A stretch of 64,000 nucleotides of DNA. It comes from Escherichia coli O127:H6 str. E2348/69. Its GTDB lineage: Bacteria; Pseudomonadota; Gammaproteobacteria; Enterobacterales; Enterobacteriaceae. A program made the translations under genes and the position numbers. The notes beneath the pieces were generated by a model that did no database searches, was not told the DNA's origin, and saw only the letters and a list, made by a program, of their open reading frames with translations. The stretch is taken from the NCBI RefSeq assembly GCF_000026545.1, contig NC_011601.1. One strand, written 5' to 3'. Shown piece after piece: positions 4,569 through 62,496 of the stretch. The first letter of the stretch is position 1. Each line of letters starts with the position of its first letter.

Positions 4569-6500
4569 ATGAGTTATCAGGTCTTAGCCCGAAAATGGCG
4601 CCCACAAACCTTTGCTGACGTCGTCGGCCAGGAACATGTGCTGACCGCACTGGCGAACGGCTTGTCGTTAGGGCGTATTCATCATGCTTATCTTTTTTCC
4701 GGCACCCGTGGCGTCGGAAAAACCTCTATCGCCCGACTGTTGGCGAAGGGGCTAAACTGCGAAACCGGCATTACCGCGACGCCGTGCGGCGTGTGCGATA
4801 ACTGTCGTGAAATCGAGCAGGGGCGCTTTGTCGATCTGATTGAAATCGACGCCGCCTCGCGCACTAAAGTCGAAGATACCCGCGACCTGCTGGATAACGT
4901 TCAGTACGCTCCGGCGCGTGGTCGTTTCAAAGTTTATCTCATCGACGAAGTGCATATGCTGTCGCGTCACAGCTTTAACGCACTGTTAAAAACCCTTGAA
5001 GAGCCGCCAGAGCACGTTAAGTTTTTGCTGGCGACGACCGATCCGCAGAAATTGCCGGTGACGATTTTGTCACGCTGTCTGCAATTTCATCTCAAGGCGC
5101 TGGATGTCGAGCAAATTCGCCATCAGCTTGAGCACATCCTCAACGAAGAACATATCGCTCACGAGCCGCGGGCGCTGCAATTGTTGGCACGCGCCGCTGA
5201 AGGCAGCCTGCGAGATGCCTTAAGTCTGACCGACCAGGCGATTGCCAGCGGTGACGGCCAGGTTTCAACCCAGGCGGTCAGTGCGATGCTGGGTACGCTT
5301 GACGACGATCAGGCGTTATCGCTGGTTGAAGCGATGGTCGAGGCCAACGGCGAGCGCGTAATGGCGCTAATTAATGAAGCTGCTGCCCGTGGTATCGAGT
5401 GGGAAGCGTTGCTGGTGGAAATGCTCGGTCTGTTGCATCGTATTGCGATGGTACAACTTTCGCCTGCTGCTCTTGGCAACGACATGGCCGCCATTGAGCT
5501 GCGGATGCGTGAACTGGCGCGCACCATACCGCCGACGGATATTCAGCTTTACTATCAGACGCTGTTGATTGGTCGCAAAGAATTACCGTATGCGCCAGAC
5601 CGCCGTATGGGTGTTGAGATGACGCTGCTGCGCGCGCTGGCGTTCCATCCGCGTATGCCTCTGCCTGAGCCAGAAGTGCCACGCCAGTCCTTTGCGCCCG
5701 TTGCGCCAACGGCAGTAATGACGCCAACACAGGTGCCGCCGCAACCGCAATCAGCGCTGCAGCAGGCACCGACTGTACCGCTCCCGGAAACCACCAGCCA
5801 GGTGCTGGCGGCGCGCCAGCAGTTGCAGCGCGTGCAGGGAGCAACCAAAGCAAAAAAGAGTGAACCGGCAGCCGCTACCCGCGCGCGGCCGGTGAATAAC
5901 GCTGCGCTGGAAAGACTGGCTTCGGTCACCGATCGCGTTCAGGCGCGCCCGGTGCCATCGGCGCTGGAAAAAGCGCCAGCCAAAAAAGAAGCGTATCGCT
6001 GGAAGGCGACCACTCCAGTGATGCAGCAAAAAGAAGTGGTCGCCACGCCGAAGGCGCTGAAAAAAGCGCTGGAACATGAAAAAACGCCGGAACTGGCGGC
6101 GAAGCTGGCGGCAGAAGCCATTGAGCGCGACCCGTGGGCGGCTCAGGTGAGTCAACTTTCGCTACCAAAACTGGTCGAACAGGTGGCGTTAAATGCCTGG
6201 AAAGAGGAGAGCGACAACGCAGTATGTCTGCATTTGCGCTCCTCTCAGCGGCATTTGAACAACCGCGGCGCACAGCAAAAACTGGCTGAAGCGTTGAGCA
6301 CGTTAAAAGGTTCAACGGTTGAACTGACTATCGTTGAAGATGATAATCCCGCGGTGCGTACGCCGCTGGAATGGCGTCAGGCGATATACGAAGAAAAACT
6401 TGCGCAGGCGCGCGAGTCCATTATTGCGGATAATAATATTCAGACCCTGCGTCGATTCTTCGATGCGGAGCTGGATGAAGAAAGTATCCGCCCCATTTGA
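4569..6500 (+). CDS. dnaX: DNA polymerase III tau subunit (643 aa); gamma subunit made by -1 frameshift
   Basis: ORF track; AAA+ Walker A GTRGVGKT; slippery A AAA AAG at about 5852-5858 followed by a stem-loop. Confidence 0.95.
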   Translation: MSYQVLARKWRPQTFADVVGQEHVLTALANGLSLGRIHHAYLFSGTRGVGKTSIARLLAKGLNCETGITATPCGVCDNCREIEQGRFVDLIEIDAASRTKVEDTRDLLDNVQYAPARGRFKVYLIDEVHMLSRHSFNALLKTLEEPPEHVKFLLATTDPQKLPVTILSRCLQFHLKALDVEQIRHQLEHILNEEHIAHEPRALQLLARAAEGSLRDALSLTDQAIASGDGQVSTQAVSAMLGTLDDDQALSLVEAMVEANGERVMALINEAAARGIEWEALLVEMLGLLHRIAMVQLSPAALGNDMAAIELRMRELARTIPPTDIQLYYQTLLIGRKELPYAPDRRMGVEMTLLRALAFHPRMPLPEPEVPRQSFAPVAPTAVMTPTQVPPQPQSALQQAPTVPLPETTSQVLAARQQLQRVQGATKAKKSEPAAATRARPVNNAALERLASVTDRVQARPVPSALEKAPAKKEAYRWKATTPVMQQKEVVATPKALKKALEHEKTPELAAKLAAEAIERDPWAAQVSQLSLPKLVEQVALNAWKEESDNAVCLHLRSSQRHLNNRGAQQKLAEALSTLKGSTVELTIVEDDNPAVRTPLEWRQAIYEEKLAQARESIIADNNIQTLRRFFDAELDEESIRPI

Positions 6501-13809: not shown

Positions 13810-13925
13810 TCGGTTCGTAGGCCAGATAAGGCGTTCACGCCGCATCTGGCATTTTGCTTTCAATGCCTGATGCGACGCTGGCGCGTCTTATCAGGCCTAC
13901 ATATCCGCGCCTATTATCCGGCAAC
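13810..13925. repeat. REP/BIME elements between gsk and ybaL
   Basis: taggccagataaggcgttcacgccgcatctggca and gcctgatgcgacgctggcgcgtcttatcaggcctac. Confidence 0.7.
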
Positions 13926-19573: not shown

Positions 19574-19656
19574 ACACCGTCGCTTAAAGTGACGGCATAA
19601 TAATAAAAATATGAAATTCCTCTTTGACGGGCCAATAGCGATATTGGCCATTTTTT
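19574..19656 (+). ncRNA. chiX: ChiX (MicM/SroB) Hfq-dependent small RNA
   Basis: acaccgtcgcttaaagtgacggcataataataaaaatatgaaattcctctttgacgggccaatagcgatattggccattttttt in the ybaK-ybaP intergenic region, ending in a hairpin plus T-run; matches ChiX as I recall it; coordinates approximate. Confidence 0.65.
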
Positions 19657-20450
19657 TAGCGCAACATCTGCGGCAAATTCCCTTCTCCATACAGATGTAA
19701 AGCACCGACCGCGACCACATAGCGCCCCGGCGGCATGTCGCGTAATTTGTCCCGCCAGGCGAGATTTCGCTGATGCATCAGCACATCGTACAGCGACTGA
19801 CTGAATGTATTGGGCAGCGTTATTTCATTATTTTGCGGCGGCGCATTCAGCCACCAGCCCATCATTTGTTGCAGCAACCGTGCATTGGTGTGCCAGTGGG
19901 TCAGCGTATCGTCCAGCAGCGCCAGTCCTTTGTCAGGGAGCTGGAGCAACATGGCAATCTGTTTTTCTGCGCCTTCCAGTTCAATTACAGGTTTATGTTG
20001 TTGCTTCGCCGCCTGCAATAGCTGGTAATCGATACCATATTCTGCCCGCAGCCCCAGTTTTTGCGCCTGCGTCGCCTGAAGAACCATCGCGATTTGCCAC
20101 AACGGTTGAGTAGAAAAGAGTGACGGAGAAATGCCCATCTCCTGGCTAATGTGCTGCAGGTTTTGGAGTTGCTCCTCGCTAATGCGCTCTTCCAGTGCCT
20201 CGCAGGCAGGCAAATTGGCAAAAGGCGTATCGCTGGTGGAAACATCCGCCTCGACGATCAGCGCATCGGCGTTTTTGAGCTTTTTGAGCAAACGGGTGGG
20301 CAGGGGAGCCATATCGTGGCTACCCATATGAATACTGCCGATCAGATGAAAATGGCGATTGCCGGGAAGAGAGATATCGATAGCAGGCCAGGTGTAATGA
20401 TTACCGCGCAGCGCGGCCCAAAGCGTTTTTACCCGGTACAACAGATCCAT
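19656..20450 (-). CDS. ybaP: TraB/GumN-family protein YbaP, 264 aa
   Basis: ORF track; conserved position. Confidence 0.8.
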   Translation of the reverse strand: MDLLYRVKTLWAALRGNHYTWPAIDISLPGNRHFHLIGSIHMGSHDMAPLPTRLLKKLKNADALIVEADVSTSDTPFANLPACEALEERISEEQLQNLQHISQEMGISPSLFSTQPLWQIAMVLQATQAQKLGLRAEYGIDYQLLQAAKQQHKPVIELEGAEKQIAMLLQLPDKGLALLDDTLTHWHTNARLLQQMMGWWLNAPPQNNEITLPNTFSQSLYDVLMHQRNLAWRDKLRDMPPGRYVVAVGALHLYGEGNLPQMLR

Positions 20451-29754: not shown

Positions 29755-29850
29755 CCTCTACTCGGCTATATGCCGGATGCGGCGCAAGCGCCTTATCTGG
29801 CCTACGATTCGGGCATATTTTGTAGGCATGATAAGACGCGCCAGCGTCGC
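29755..29850. repeat. REP/BIME elements at the island-ybbJ junction
   Basis: gccggatgcggcgcaagcgccttatctggcctac and gcgacgctggcgcgtcttatcatgcctac (revcomp) between 29749 and the ybbJ stop. Confidence 0.65.
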
Positions 29851-29851
29851 A

Positions 29852-30310
29852 TCAGGCGATGACCGCACGGATAATCAGCGTTATTCCTTCTATCGCAATC
29901 ACCTCAACATGCGTACCAGCGCCGAGATCCTCGCTGGCGCTGACAGGCCATGAACTGTCACCGACGCGCATATGACCGCGCCCGTTGACCAGCGGAGATT
30001 CCAGAACAAAACGTTGGCCAATCAACTGCTGCCCGCGCTGGTTTAAATGACTGTCGCTGTGCTTTTGTTCGCGCACCCGCCGCGACAACCATTTCCACCA
30101 CAGCCAGGCGGCGAGCAGCGTCAGGACGGCAAACATTACCCCTTGCCACTCCCAACCCAGCGGCAGCAACCAGACCACCAGACCGGTAATCACCGCTGCC
30201 ACGCCGCTCCACAACAGATAACCATTGCCGCCCAACATCTCGGCTGCCAGCAGCAAACCGCCGAGACTTAGCCAGAAAATATGTTGATGGACGACCATTA
30301 ACTCCATCAT
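29852..30310 (-). CDS. ybbJ: NfeD-like inner membrane protein YbbJ, 152 aa
   Basis: ORF track; overlaps qmcA stop; conserved NfeD-SPFH pair. Confidence 0.85.
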
Positions 30311-38289: not shown

Positions 38290-38400
<111 letters not shown>

Positions 38401-38656: not shown

Positions 38657-39958
38657 GCTAGATGAGGACTGCCTCTCTCCAAATTAGAGCACCAGAATCA
38701 GCACCACCTGTATCCTGACCAGGACTTAAAAGTACTTTTCCGCACTGCGGTAATCCCTTGAGGCAGTATCACTACTAGCGTCGGGATTGTATCGCCAACA
38801 TAGCTGTTGTGTAAGTTCACAGAGATATTGCAATTGCCTCCGGATAAGTAAGGGGAGATTGCACTATGCAAATGCAGCATCTGATGGTTGGCTATCCTAA
38901 GTACTACCAAACGGCCGATTATGCGTTGAGGCTTTCAGTGATGGCTGATATAGCAACAATGAGAATGAAGGCTCTGCACTTCTGGGATAAACACGGTATT
39001 TCTGCAGCTTCTGAAGCCTTTGGCGTGTCCTGCCGCACGCTTTACTGGTGGCGTCAGTTACTGAACAAGGAAGGACCTGAGGGGCTAATCCCGCACAGTA
39101 AGGCACCTCTGGTGCGACGAAAAAAACACTGGCATCCCGATGTGCTGAAAGAGATTCGACGCCTCAGGACAGAGCTGCCGAACCTCGGTAAAGAGCAGAT
39201 TTTTGTTCGCCTGAAGCCCTGGTGCGAACAGCGCTATCTGGCCTGTCCGAGTGTTTCCACCATCGGCAGAATGATCGCTGCCGCACATGATAAAATGCGG
39301 ATGATACCTGTGCGTCTGGGATCGCGGGGGAAGGCACTGCTTGTCAAAAAGCGGTCTGCCAAACCCCGCAGGCCAAAGCACTACCGCCCGGTAAAGACAG
39401 GTGAGCTCATTGGGATGGACGCCATTGAGCTCAGAATGGGCGAACTGCGTCGCTATGTCATCACCATGATCGACGAATGCAGCAATTACGCGCTGGCGCT
39501 GGCTGTGCCGTCACTCAACAGTGATATCGTCAATCACTTCTTCAGCCGCGCAGCCCGGTTGTTCCCGGTCGGTATCAGCCAGATAATCACAGATAACGGA
39601 AAAGAGTTCCTGGGAAACTTCGACAAAACGCTGCAGGAAGCCGCTATCAAACACCTCTGGACCTATCCCTACACGCCAAAAATGAACGCTATCTGTGAAC
39701 GTTTTAACCGGACGTTAAGAGAGCAGTTTATTGAATTTAATGAGATTTTACTCTTTGAAGATCTGGCGCTATTTAACCAGAAGCTGGCGGAATATCTGGT
39801 GCTGTATAACAGCAAAAGACCCCACAAGGCGCTCGCACTAATGACGCCCGTGGAATATATTTTAAAAGAGAATAAAAATTGCAATATGTGGTGGACCCAT
39901 ACAGCTGTTTGAATATGTAGGCATCCTGACTTATAATTCACTTGCTAGATGAGGACTG
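38657..39958 (+). mobile_element. Putative insertion sequence carrying one DDE transposase gene (IS481-like architecture); ends uncertain
   Basis: Transposase ORF bracketed by a 16-bp direct repeat tgctagatgaggactg at about 38657-38672 and 39943-39958; occupies the position where K-12 has the rhsD element. Confidence 0.45.
38866..39912 (+). CDS. DDE transposase, N-terminal HTH plus integrase-core (rve) domain, 348 aa
   Basis: ORF track; catalytic D (GMDAIE), D (ITDNGKEF) and E (ICERFNRT) with 35-residue D-to-E spacing. Confidence 0.7.
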   Translation: MQMQHLMVGYPKYYQTADYALRLSVMADIATMRMKALHFWDKHGISAASEAFGVSCRTLYWWRQLLNKEGPEGLIPHSKAPLVRRKKHWHPDVLKEIRRLRTELPNLGKEQIFVRLKPWCEQRYLACPSVSTIGRMIAAAHDKMRMIPVRLGSRGKALLVKKRSAKPRRPKHYRPVKTGELIGMDAIELRMGELRRYVITMIDECSNYALALAVPSLNSDIVNHFFSRAARLFPVGISQIITDNGKEFLGNFDKTLQEAAIKHLWTYPYTPKMNAICERFNRTLREQFIEFNEILLFEDLALFNQKLAEYLVLYNSKRPHKALALMTPVEYILKENKNCNMWWTHTAV

Positions 39959-40094
39959 TTTCATTTCTGCCCGGAACCACCAAGTCTTGGGCGGAAAAAA
40001 TAAAAAAACCGACTGTCATGTCGGTTTTTTTATATCTGTATTCTGGTGCAACCATTCTGTTCTCACGACAATCGCCGTTTCAGAATACCGCCCA

Positions 40095-52996: not shown

Positions 52997-53124
52997 CTAT
53001 TACCTTTAAAGCGGATGCGATTTATATCGCATCTTTTTTTACCTGAATTGACTACAAAAAAAGCCACGGAATAAACCGTGGCAAAATCCAACATAGCTAA
53101 AAATAATCAGGCGAGTGGTATGAC

Positions 53125-59490: not shown

Positions 59491-60306
59491 ATGACGATCA
59501 TCCATCCTCTACTTGCCAGCCGTAGCGCACCGAATTATCGCCAGTCCTGGCGGTTAGCGGGAGTGTGGCGGCGGGCGATTAACCTGATGACGGAAAGCGG
59601 CGAACTGTTAACGCTGCATCGTCAGGGGAGTGGTTTCGGCCCCGGCGGATGGGTGCTTCGCCGCGCGCAATTCGATGCGTTATGCGGTGGATTATGCGGC
59701 AATGAACGACCACAGGTTGTGGCACAAGGGATTCGCCTCGGGCGTTTCACGGTTAAACAGCCACAGCGTTATTGTTTGCTACGTATTACGCCGCCTGCGC
59801 ATCCTCAAGCGCTTGCCGTTGCATGGATGCAACGCGCGGAGGAAACCGGGCTTTTCGGGCCACTGGCATTGGCGGCAAGCGATCCGCTGCCTGCTGAATT
59901 ACGCCAGTTTCGTCACTGTTTTCAGGCCGCGCTCAATGGCGTTAAGACCGACTGGCGGCACTGGCTGGGTAAAGGCCCCGGATTAACGCCAAGTCATGAT
60001 GACACGCTGAGCGGAATGCTGCTGGCGGCCTGGTATTATGGCGCTTTAGATGCGCGCTCCGGTCGCCCGTTTTTTGCCTGTTCCGACAATCTTCAACTCG
60101 TTACCACTGCGGTGAGCGTCAGTTATTTACGTTATGCCGCGCAAGGATATTTCGCCTCGCCACTCCTGCACTTTGTTCATGCTCTGAGTTGCCCGAAACG
60201 TACCGCAGCGGCGATCGATTCGCTGCTGGCGCTGGGGCATACGTCAGGGGCCGATACGCTGCTGGGGTTCTGGCTTGGCCAACAATTATTACAAGGAAAA
60301 CCATGA
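59491..60306 (+). CDS. ylbF: DUF2877 protein YlbF, 271 aa
   Basis: ORF 59398..60306 trimmed to [12 protein letters not shown]...; overlaps ybcF start. Confidence 0.75.
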
Positions 60307-61196
60307 AAACACTGGTTGTGGCTCTTGGGGGCAACGCCTTACTCCAGCGCGGTGAGGCGCTGACGGCAGAAAATCAATATCGCAATATTGCCAGTGCTGT
60401 ACCCGCGCTGGCGCGCCTGGCCCGTTCTTATCGGCTGGCGATTGTTCACGGCAACGGACCGCAGGTGGGGCTGCTGGCGTTACAGAATCTGGCGTGGAAA
60501 GAGGTAGAACCGTATCCGCTGGATGTACTGGTGGCGGAAAGCCAGGGGATGATTGGCTATATGCTGGCGCAGAGCTTGAGCGCACAGCCGCAGATGCCGC
60601 CTGTCACGACGGTGCTGACGCGCATTGAGGTTTCGCCTGATGATCCGGCGTTTTTACAGCCAGAGAAGTTTATCGGTCCGGTTTATCAGCCAGAAGAACA
60701 AGAGGCACTGGAAGCGGCTTACGGCTGGCAGATGAAACGTGATGGTAAATATTTACGCCGGGTGGTGGCGTCTCCGCAACCGCGTAAAATTCTCGACAGC
60801 GAAGCCATCGAGTTGTTGCTCAAAGAGGGGCATGTGGTGATTTGCAGTGGCGGCGGCGGTGTGCCTGTGGCGGAAGACGGGGCAGGGAGTGAAGCGGTGA
60901 TTGATAAAGATCTCGCCGCTGCGTTGCTCGCCGAGCAGATTAATGCCGATGGACTGGTGATCCTCACCGATGCTGATGCGGTATATGAAAACTGGGGAAC
61001 GCCGCAGCAACGTGCCATTCGCCATGCCACACCGGATGAGTTAGCGCCATTTGCCAAAGCCGATGGTTCGATGGGGCCGAAGGTAACGGCGGTGAGTGGC
61101 TATGTCAGAAGCCGTGGTAAACCCGCGTGGATTGGGGCGTTATCGCGGATTGAAGAGACGCTGGCGGGCGAAGCGGGGACTTGTATTTCGCTGTAG
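60303..61196 (+). CDS. ybcF: Carbamate-kinase-like protein, 297 aa
   Basis: ORF 60189..61196 trimmed to [17 protein letters not shown] (amino-acid kinase fold). Confidence 0.85.
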
Positions 61197-61214
61197 TGAT
61201 GGGCACCAGGCAAT

Positions 61215-61420
61215 TGGCACATCTAGCCTGATGCGATGCTGGCGCGTCTTATCAGGTCTACAGGCGGTGTCGGAACGGTAGGCCGGATAAGGCGTTCACG
61301 CCGCATCCGGCAATCGGCACACCATGCCTGATGCGATGCTGGCGCATCTTATCAGGCCTACAGTCGGTGTTGGAACGGTAGGCCTGATAAGGCGTTCACG
61401 CCGCATGCGGCAAGAAAATG
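61215..61420. repeat. Tandem BIME: two roughly 100-bp units, each a REP pair
   Basis: gcctgatgcgatgctggcgcgtcttatcagg...taggccggataaggcgttcacgccgcatccggca repeated almost exactly. Confidence 0.8.
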
Positions 61421-61428
61421 AGCATCAA

Positions 61429-62496
61429 TTAACTGAACTTACTCTGCGCCCACATCACGCCGCTGGCATACTCCGGCGGCAGCAGTGGGATTAAGGCTTC
61501 CAGCGTCGCGGTCAGACGCGATGTGTCGCTGTCGGTCAAATTCAAATGCCCCACTTTACGGCCCGGACGGACTTCTTTGTCGTACCAGTGCAGATGCACA
61601 AGCGGCAGTTTCAGCCAGTCATAATTCAGATCGCTACCAATCAGATTGATCATCACCGACGGATTATTCACTACTGGTTGCGGTAACGGCAGATCGGTAA
61701 TTGCCCGCAGATGTAGCTCAAACTGGCTGATGCTGGCACCGTTTTGTGTCCAGTGCCCACTGTTATGCACACGCGGAGCCAGTTCGTTGATCAGCAGACC
61801 TTGTGGGGTGACAAAACACTCCATTGCCATCACGCCTACATAGCTCAGCTCCTGCATAATCGCCGACAACATCTCTTCAGCTTGCGCCTGTTGCTGTGCG
61901 TTGGCCTGCGGGAAAGCGACGCTGGTGCGCAAAATGCCGTCCTGATGCAGGTTATGCGTCAGCGGATAAAACACGGTGCTGCCATCAAAACCGCGCGCGC
62001 CAACCAGCGACACTTCACCAGAGAAGTTTATGCCCTGCTCGACAATACATTCGCCGTAGCATTCAGCCGGTAACTGTTCGGTTTCAGCGGCGCGTAAACG
62101 CCATTGACCGCGTCCGTCATAGCCACCAGTGCGGCGCTTAACAATCGCCAGCTCACCTAAACGATCAAACACCGCAGGCCACTCGCTGCGTTCGGCAAGT
62201 AACTGCCACGGTGCGGTCGGCAGGTGGAGTTTATCGAAAAGCTGCTTCTGAGTCAGACGGTCGGCAATAATCGGGAACACATCGCGGTTCACAAAGGCCG
62301 GATGGCGTGCCAGCTCGCGGGTTAATGCGGTTTCCGGCCAGCGTTCGATCTCAGCGGTAATCACGCTTTGTTGAAAAGGCACCGCCGCCGGTTCAGCGTC
62401 CAGCCCGACCGGCCAGACAGCAATGCCTAACGGTTCGCCTGCCTGACGTAGCATACGGCCTAACTGCCCGTTCCCGAGGACGCAAACCTGTTTCAT
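61429..62496 (-). CDS. purK: N5-carboxyaminoimidazole ribonucleotide synthase, 355 aa
   Basis: ORF track; ATP-grasp; overlaps purE stop. Confidence 0.9.

Follow-up and report, generated by a model that had tools for sequence, protein, structure and literature searches.

The genes ybcF, which encodes a carbamate kinase, and purK converge in Escherichia coli E2348/69 (O127:H6 EPEC) on a spacer of 232 bp (61197-61428; positions refer throughout to the window, that is, the whole stretch of 64,000 nucleotides that was analysed). This spacer is almost entirely filled by a BIME array made up of four REP palindromes in two tandem units (Table 1). The array is wholly extragenic, with 29 nt separating the ybcF stop codon from the first REP and 16 nt separating the purK stop codon from the last one (REP4). 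REPs near stop codons reportedly stall ribosomes according to one study, and the effective distance is said to be about 15 nt or less. No gene is annotated in the spacer by PGAP in any of the records inspected, and a literature search on purK, ybcF, and repeat found no paper on this particular locus.

Table 1. Features of the ybcF-purK region of E2348/69 in window coordinates
Feature	Position	Strand	Remarks
ybcF (carbamate kinase) CDS	60303-61196	+	PGAP annotation; stop codon TAG at 61194-61196, open reading frame ends at 61196; left flank
Repeat unit 1, 100 bp	61203-61302		Reference copy of the repeat search
Left-edge remnant, degenerate Y-REP head and l-like linker, GCACCAGGCAATTGGCACATCTA	61203-61225		First 23 nt of unit 1
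REP1, Z2 type	61226-61261	-	GTAG tail on the - strand; CTAC at 61258-61261; REP-head pattern match at 61226
Tail-to-tail linker 1, S type, 16 nt, AGGCGGTGTCGGAACG	61262-61277
REP2, Y type, intact	61278-61312	+	GTAG at 61278-61281; Y half of the naRNA4 alignment
Complete Y-l-Z2 module across the unit junction	61281-61358	+	Rfam RF02564 (naRNA4) match
Repeat unit 2, 100 bp	61303-61402		Second copy, 89% identity with unit 1
Head-to-head linker, l type, 13 nt, ATCGGCACACCAT	61313-61325		Counterpart of the 'l' linker in the REP325 Y-l-Z2 unit (PMC4550694)
REP3, Z2 type	61326-61361	-	CTAC at 61358-61361; Z2 half of the naRNA4 alignment
Tail-to-tail linker 2, S type, 16 nt, AGTCGGTGTTGGAACG	61362-61377
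REP4, degenerate Y type	61378-61412	+	GTAG at 61378-61381; GCCTGAT ... ATGCGGC
purK CDS	61429-62496	-	PGAP annotation; open reading frame of 355 aa; stop codon TAA is the complement of 61429-61431; right flank

A repeat search of the region returned one direct-repeat family consisting of two copies of 100 nt each, spaced exactly 100 nt apart and aligned without gaps. Tandem Repeats Finder reported 61209-61413 with a period of 100, 2.0 copies, 90% matches, 0% indels, and a score of 340. The array in register therefore covers both units of Table 1, beyond which the fourth REP runs on for another 10 nt (to 61412). The four palindromes follow the order Z2-S-Y-l-Z2-S-Y, with the last Y degenerate, which amounts to two head-to-tail units of 100 bp. 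A preliminary description of this DNA had proposed a BIME of inverted REP pairs in two tandem copies, lying between ybcF and purK; the repeat search, Tandem Repeats Finder, and the PGAP annotation all bear this out. The same description placed the array at 61215-61420; the array is real, but these ends lie about 10 bp off on each side of the in-register limits 61203-61402. It also called the units of about 100 bp almost identical, which was right as to two 100-bp units without indels but was generous in wording, since the units differ at 11 of 100 positions. It missed two details, the crowding of these differences at the left edge and the degeneracy of the fourth REP. Six of the 11 differences fall in the first 23 nt, comprising the left-edge remnant of a Y head and its linker. 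The remnant aligns in register with GCATCCGGCAATCGGCACACCAT of unit 2, O157 has GCATCCGGCAATCGGCGCACCAT at the same position, and a weak partial match to the naRNA4 model covers this edge (61177-61258, 31.3 bits). In REP4, two substitutions break two stem pairs, and this palindrome is missed by the REP-head pattern at one mismatch.

The junction between the units matches the Rfam naRNA4 model (RF02564) on the + strand end to end, over model positions 1-77, with a score of 83.1 bits (E = 7.7e-15), while the - strand scores 59.5 bits. The gathering score of this model is 59.5 bits, so that the - strand match lies exactly at the threshold. It is this end-to-end match that assigns the palindromes to the Y and Z2 types and marks the linker between their heads as 'l'. 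The REP-head pattern had 10 matches in the 64-kb window where 0.37 were expected, and none of 100 shuffles reached 10, which shows that the array is more than a chance arrangement. Three of the 10 matches fall within it.

Other elements of this kind occur elsewhere in the window. A second Y-l-Z2 module at 13820-13897 (+), with a REP head at 13865, represents another BIME-2-type element and is also matched by the naRNA4 model (79.8 bits). Since the model matches this second REP pair and also the reverse strand of the ybcF-purK junction, it recognises any Y-l-Z2 module. Another BIME, with convergent REP heads, is present at 29772-29857 (Y-like at 29772, + strand; Z-like at 29844, - strand), and single REP heads are found at 2436, 32832, 38382, and 40265. 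The head at 38382 is of Y type and adjoins a match to Rfam ES036 (CssrF) at 38319-38361 (-, 40.3 bits) that overlaps an IHF consensus at 38337-38349; the arrangement at 38319-38396 looks like a BIME-1/RIP-type element. Further Rfam matches above the gathering score were the DnaX frameshift element (5833-5897, 96.8 bits), sroB (19574-19657, 81.1 bits), AgrB (39945-40033, 53.6 bits), and STnc480 (53052-53118, 84.1 bits). On the other side of purK, the window has about 90-120 bp between purE (open reading frame end 63029) and lpxH (open reading frame start 63120), and in JJ2434 the purE-lpxH spacer is about 535 bp long and carries an annotated hypothetical protein of 109 aa (L005, 5105-5639).

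All four REPs are predicted to fold as hairpins on either strand. The energies for the + and - strands were -17.5 and -12.4 kcal/mol for REP1, -20.9 and -21.3 for REP2, -20.0 and -19.1 for REP3, and -12.7 and -11.6 for REP4. For the spacer RNA as a whole, the folding z-score was -4.6 (+ strand) or -6.5 (- strand); none of 200 shuffles folded as well. A scan of 60900-61750 found no sigma-70-like promoter and, on either strand, no intrinsic terminator-like site made of a hairpin and a T-run. There is no match to the IHF consensus WATCAANNNNTTR inside 61197-61428. Because the spacer has no intrinsic terminator, the REPs alone give structure to the 3' ends of the two transcripts.

Unit number at the locus in other strains

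The preliminary description had named a comparison of unit number across strains as a check, and the comparison yielded one to five units at this locus. For this we searched complete E. coli genomes with a query that fused a 400-bp piece of ybcF and one of purK, and took the span between the two matched pieces as the spacer length. Spacers of 119-138 bp correspond to one unit (132 and 138 bp among the sequenced alleles), 194-204 bp to the K-12 type, 232 bp to two units, 332 bp to three, 422 bp to four, and 532 or 533 bp to five. The 100-bp register was exact in the sequenced alleles. One unit is found in CFT073 and O157, two in E2348/69, three in FDAARGOS_1252 and FDAARGOS_536, four in 2015C-4136CT1, and five in JJ2434 and NGF1. 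In the four-unit allele of 2015C-4136CT1, one unit has a 10-bp deletion in the head-to-head linker. The K-12 allele is a three-REP type that reads Z2, truncated Y, Z2, Y.

In a spread sample of 59 genomes taken evenly down the ranking, 21 had one unit and 22 had the K-12 type, while two units were present in three genomes, three units in two, and five units in seven; the remaining four carried another element of 152 bp. Arrays of at least two units occurred in this sample only on flanks that are at least 97.4% identical to those of E2348/69. Among the best 60 rows by flank match, the spacer was 132 bp in 31, 232 bp in seven, 332 bp in 14, 422 bp in two, and 532 bp in six. The 232-bp rows among these 60 were E2348/69 itself and others with 99.9-100% flank identity, two of them O127:H6. 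Rows with an equal flank score (99.4% identity, 1453 bits) carry one, three, or five units, which indicates that unit number changes faster than the flanks diverge. Variation in copy number between strains has already been reported for the BIME-2 class. The series of one to five units is a small descriptive addition and not a new kind of element.

A 45-nt probe spanning tail-to-tail linker 1 was found in only 1128 of 5426 genomes, at one to five places in each and never on plasmids, and in Nissle 1917 its single match falls inside the ybcF-purK interval. Based on these matches, the sequence of the repeat unit looks private to this locus. In a plasmid collection, matches occurred only in Escherichia records, and those listed were mostly very large, several of them of chromosome scale.

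Several alleles depart from the series. VTB96815v (L008, 401-552) and three other genomes of the 59-genome sample have a 152-bp spacer that contains no REP and is occupied by a different GC-rich element (…CCCCTCGCCCCTGTGGGGAGAGGGTTAGGGTGAGGGGG…), which we take to resemble the BoxC/RSA class of E. coli intergenic repeats. In the 119-bp allele of GPEC874 (L010, 401-519), most of the Z2 REP is replaced by another palindrome, GATTATCCGACCTGGAAATATCACTGTTTCCACAGGTCGGATAAG, beside the terminal Y REP. WP5-S17-ESBL-11 (L015, 3860-4000) has a deletion of about 7.5 kb that joins the interior of allE (window position ~53708) to ~61192, in the last bases of ybcF. The junction falls upstream of the array by about 10 bp, so that everything from allE to purK is lost but for a one-unit BIME, which is kept next to purK.

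Origin of the two-unit allele and alternative readings

Comparison of individual units links the E2348/69 allele to other arrays. Unit 1 matches the first unit of JJ2434 at every base and the single CFT073 unit at all but one. The three- and four-unit alleles end in a unit that is the same as unit 2 throughout, with the degenerate terminal Y and the same right flank. The two-unit allele, with one to three differences, is also present in strains whose flank identity is 97.4-97.9%. Since unit 2 equals the terminal unit of longer alleles and the two-unit allele occurs on these more distant flanks, the allele was inherited as one form of a recombining array and is no fresh duplication; it looks like the first and last units of longer arrays put together. 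To call the locus tandemly duplicated, as the preliminary description did, is apt in that there are two tandem units; the duplication was not a recent event in this strain, however, as both units are old variants. Units across all arrays are mosaics of about eight two-state sites, such as exchange between units would produce. Unit number may change through recombination between units, which could proceed by unequal exchange (RecA-dependent), by slippage, or by TnpA-REP strand transfer and would leave mosaics of this kind. TnpA-REP cleaves and recombines or joins BIME strands in vitro, and models of amplification have been proposed (PMC3333891).

These comparisons bear directly on the possibility that a one-unit BIME was recently doubled by slippage in this strain or its lineage alone. 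The exact 100-bp register without indels would fit such an event, as would the one-unit alleles present on closely related flanks, but a recent doubling does not account for the 11 positions at which the units differ, for a second unit that shares its degenerate Y with the terminal unit of three- and four-unit alleles, or for the occurrence of the two-unit allele on flanks of 97.4-97.9% identity. We consider this origin highly improbable. The strain comparison also weighs against the idea that the spacer codes for one or more small proteins. Overlapping open reading frames of 31-61 aa can be drawn at 61236-61331 (+, 31 aa), 61296-61406 (-, 36 aa), 61324-61494 (+, 56 aa), and 61096-61281 (+, 61 aa). 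However, the 100-bp period is not divisible by three, so each added unit shifts the frame; unit number ranges from one to five, the sequence is wholly replaced in some strains, and PGAP calls no gene here in any record inspected. The probability that the spacer is coding is, in our judgement, close to nil.

Two further readings concern RNA. The score of the RF02564 match at 61281-61358 (+), well above the gathering score, could mark a dedicated small-RNA gene of the naRNA4 family, with an HU-binding, nucleoid-condensing product, in place of a generic repeat, and naRNA4 is itself a Y-l-Z2 unit of the BIME-2 REP325 (PMC4550694). But the model matches the second REP pair of the window and, at threshold, the reverse strand as well, and without a promoter-like site in 60900-61750 the + strand would be transcribed only via read-through from ybcF. 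The one-unit strains CFT073, Nissle, and O157 have no complete Y-l-Z2 module at the locus, and the published phenotype belongs to the REP325 locus and not to ybcF-purK. A dedicated RNA gene is thus quite unlikely. A classical bidirectional Rho-independent terminator serving the convergent ybcF and purK transcripts is very unlikely as well. Its position between convergent genes and the G+C-rich hairpins on both strands would suit that function, but the REP hairpins have no U-tract, no stem with a T-run was found on either strand of 60900-61750, and the passages on BIMEs in PMC12306157, citing Espeli et al. (2001), describe them as partial attenuators and not as efficient intrinsic terminators. 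The reading that we prefer is that of an inherited, non-coding array of BIME-2 type.

Possible roles of the array

What such an array might do can be proposed by analogy with its class. At the DNA level, Y REPs would be preferred sites of gyrase binding and cleavage, as the literature on the class suggests, and the array could act as a sink or barrier for positive supercoils pushed into the spacer by the converging transcription units. Because positive supercoils accumulate between converging genes, we regard a gyrase-attracting barrier as the most plausible DNA-level role that can be proposed for the array. Gyrase cleavage sites are over-represented in BIME-2, where Y is cut more often than Z2. 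Blocking transcription raises the gyrase signal at BIME-2, so the signal is intrinsic to the sequence and independent of transcription (PMC6379681). Such sites are present in some BIME-2 elements only, and the supplementary text on gyrase sites makes no mention of purK or ybcF (PMC6379681). BIME-2 elements act as topological barriers and were shown to keep transcription-induced supercoils from spreading; MG1655 has 208 such elements, mostly at the borders of supercoiling regions (PMC10592627).

At the RNA level, the hairpins with which ybcF and purK transcripts would end may slow 3'-to-5' exonucleases and may attenuate transcription that runs on into the other gene in antisense. According to the passages of PMC12306157 that deal with REPs, REP hairpins protect upstream mRNA from exonucleases and attenuate transcription (Newbury 1987, Espeli 2001, Khemici 2004). 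The first hairpin that the purK transcript meets would be weakened, since REP4, the REP nearest purK, is degenerate. The preliminary description had listed strong secondary structure, termination, mRNA stabilisation, recombination, and service as a target for insertion sequences as roles of such arrays. These match the literature on REPs and BIMEs (PMC3333891 and the same passages of PMC12306157), except that termination finds no intrinsic terminator-like site here; no IS insertion at the locus was seen in the rows inspected.

Strains exist that have one unit, the different 152-bp element, or a deletion of the whole ybcF side. Since these strains are viable with such alleles, any function of the array is dispensable or insensitive to dosage. 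One may nevertheless ask whether selection acts on unit number as a tunable trait or whether the length variation is neutral. This could be argued because flanks of equal score carry one, three, or five units (200-bp steps) and because arrays of at least two units in the spread sample are confined to flanks of at least 97.4% identity; we hold selection on unit number to be quite improbable. If it were true, gyrase recruitment or the block to ybcF/purK read-through could grow with the number of Y REPs, and the expression of purEK or of the carbamate kinase could be altered in the lineages that bear arrays. The practical value of the locus is confined to its length polymorphism, which is clean, has a step of 100 bp and a range of 132 to 533 bp, and could serve as a typing marker in E2348/69-like lineages (presumably phylogroup B2). 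It is also a natural allelic series suited to testing for an influence of BIME-2 copy number on gyrase recruitment or on read-through between the convergent genes.

Relation to described repeat classes

In the nomenclature of Gilson and Bachellier, BIME-2 elements combine z2 and y REPs, have a short S linker, and occur in tandem copies whose number at a locus varies with the strain (Ton-Hoang et al. 2012, PMC3333891). The ybcF-purK array contains Y-type and Z2-type REPs, as seen from the alignment to the naRNA4 model and from palindromes that can be read in the sequence and fold as hairpins, and all four carry the CTAC or GTAG tail (Table 1). The tail-to-tail linkers are S linkers of 16 nt with no IHF consensus and not long L linkers with an IHF site. 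Copies are in tandem, two here and one, three, four, or five elsewhere at the same locus, and the position is extragenic. As far as sequence can define the class, every defining feature of BIME-2 is present in the array. Two findings that would speak against this identity are absent, since the palindromes do align with Y and Z2 REPs and the spacer codes for no conserved protein. We conclude that the element in the ybcF-purK spacer is very probably a BIME-2, a non-coding array of four REPs in two 100-bp units, whose two-unit allele was inherited and did not arise by a new duplication. In annotation, the fitting label for the region is a REP/BIME-2 repeat, not a gene or small RNA, and the naRNA4 match should be read as a generic Y-l-Z2 REP module. 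The array is real but ordinary, a member of a long-described repeat class with little import beyond annotation.

Among known systems, the RRS repeats were considered for their similar size and GC content. These are two GC-rich repeats of 222 bp, found near dusC and lysO at a distance of 650 kb each from dif (Pham et al. 2024, PMC10592627), and their authors present them as outside the previously described categories of genomic repeats (PMC10592627). They share with the array a GC-rich, highly structured, intergenic sequence of about 200 bp and a tie to genome topology, but we rejected the identity on location and description, the array being composed of REPs and lying between ybcF and purK. 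BIME-1 (RIP/RIB) elements join Y to Z1 through a long L linker that contains an IHF site, and they occur singly (PMC3333891). In both BIME-1 and the array, inverted REP palindromes are found at the 3' ends of transcription units. The partner REP is Z1 in BIME-1, whereas that of the array is assigned to Z2 through the match to the naRNA4 Y-l-Z2 model, and with linkers of 16 nt, no IHF consensus, and a tandem arrangement, the BIME-1/RIP identity was rejected too.

Two comparisons are closer. REP325 is a six-unit BIME-2 between yjdM and yjdN in K-12, and naRNA4 is one 77-nt Y-l-Z2 unit of it (Qian et al. 2015, PMC4550694). The ybcF-purK array has in common with it the Y-l-Z2 module and a model match above the gathering score. 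By contrast, REP325 lies at a different locus and has six units where the array has two, with only one complete Y-l-Z2 module, and it is for REP325 that a discrete HU-binding RNA is described. With BIME-2 as a class, the array shares alternating Y and Z2 palindromes, a short tail-to-tail linker, tandem arrangement, an extragenic position, and a copy number that varies among strains. Nothing essential differs between the two, and the details that are the array's own are the degenerate terminal Y beside purK and the remnant of a Y head at the ybcF edge.
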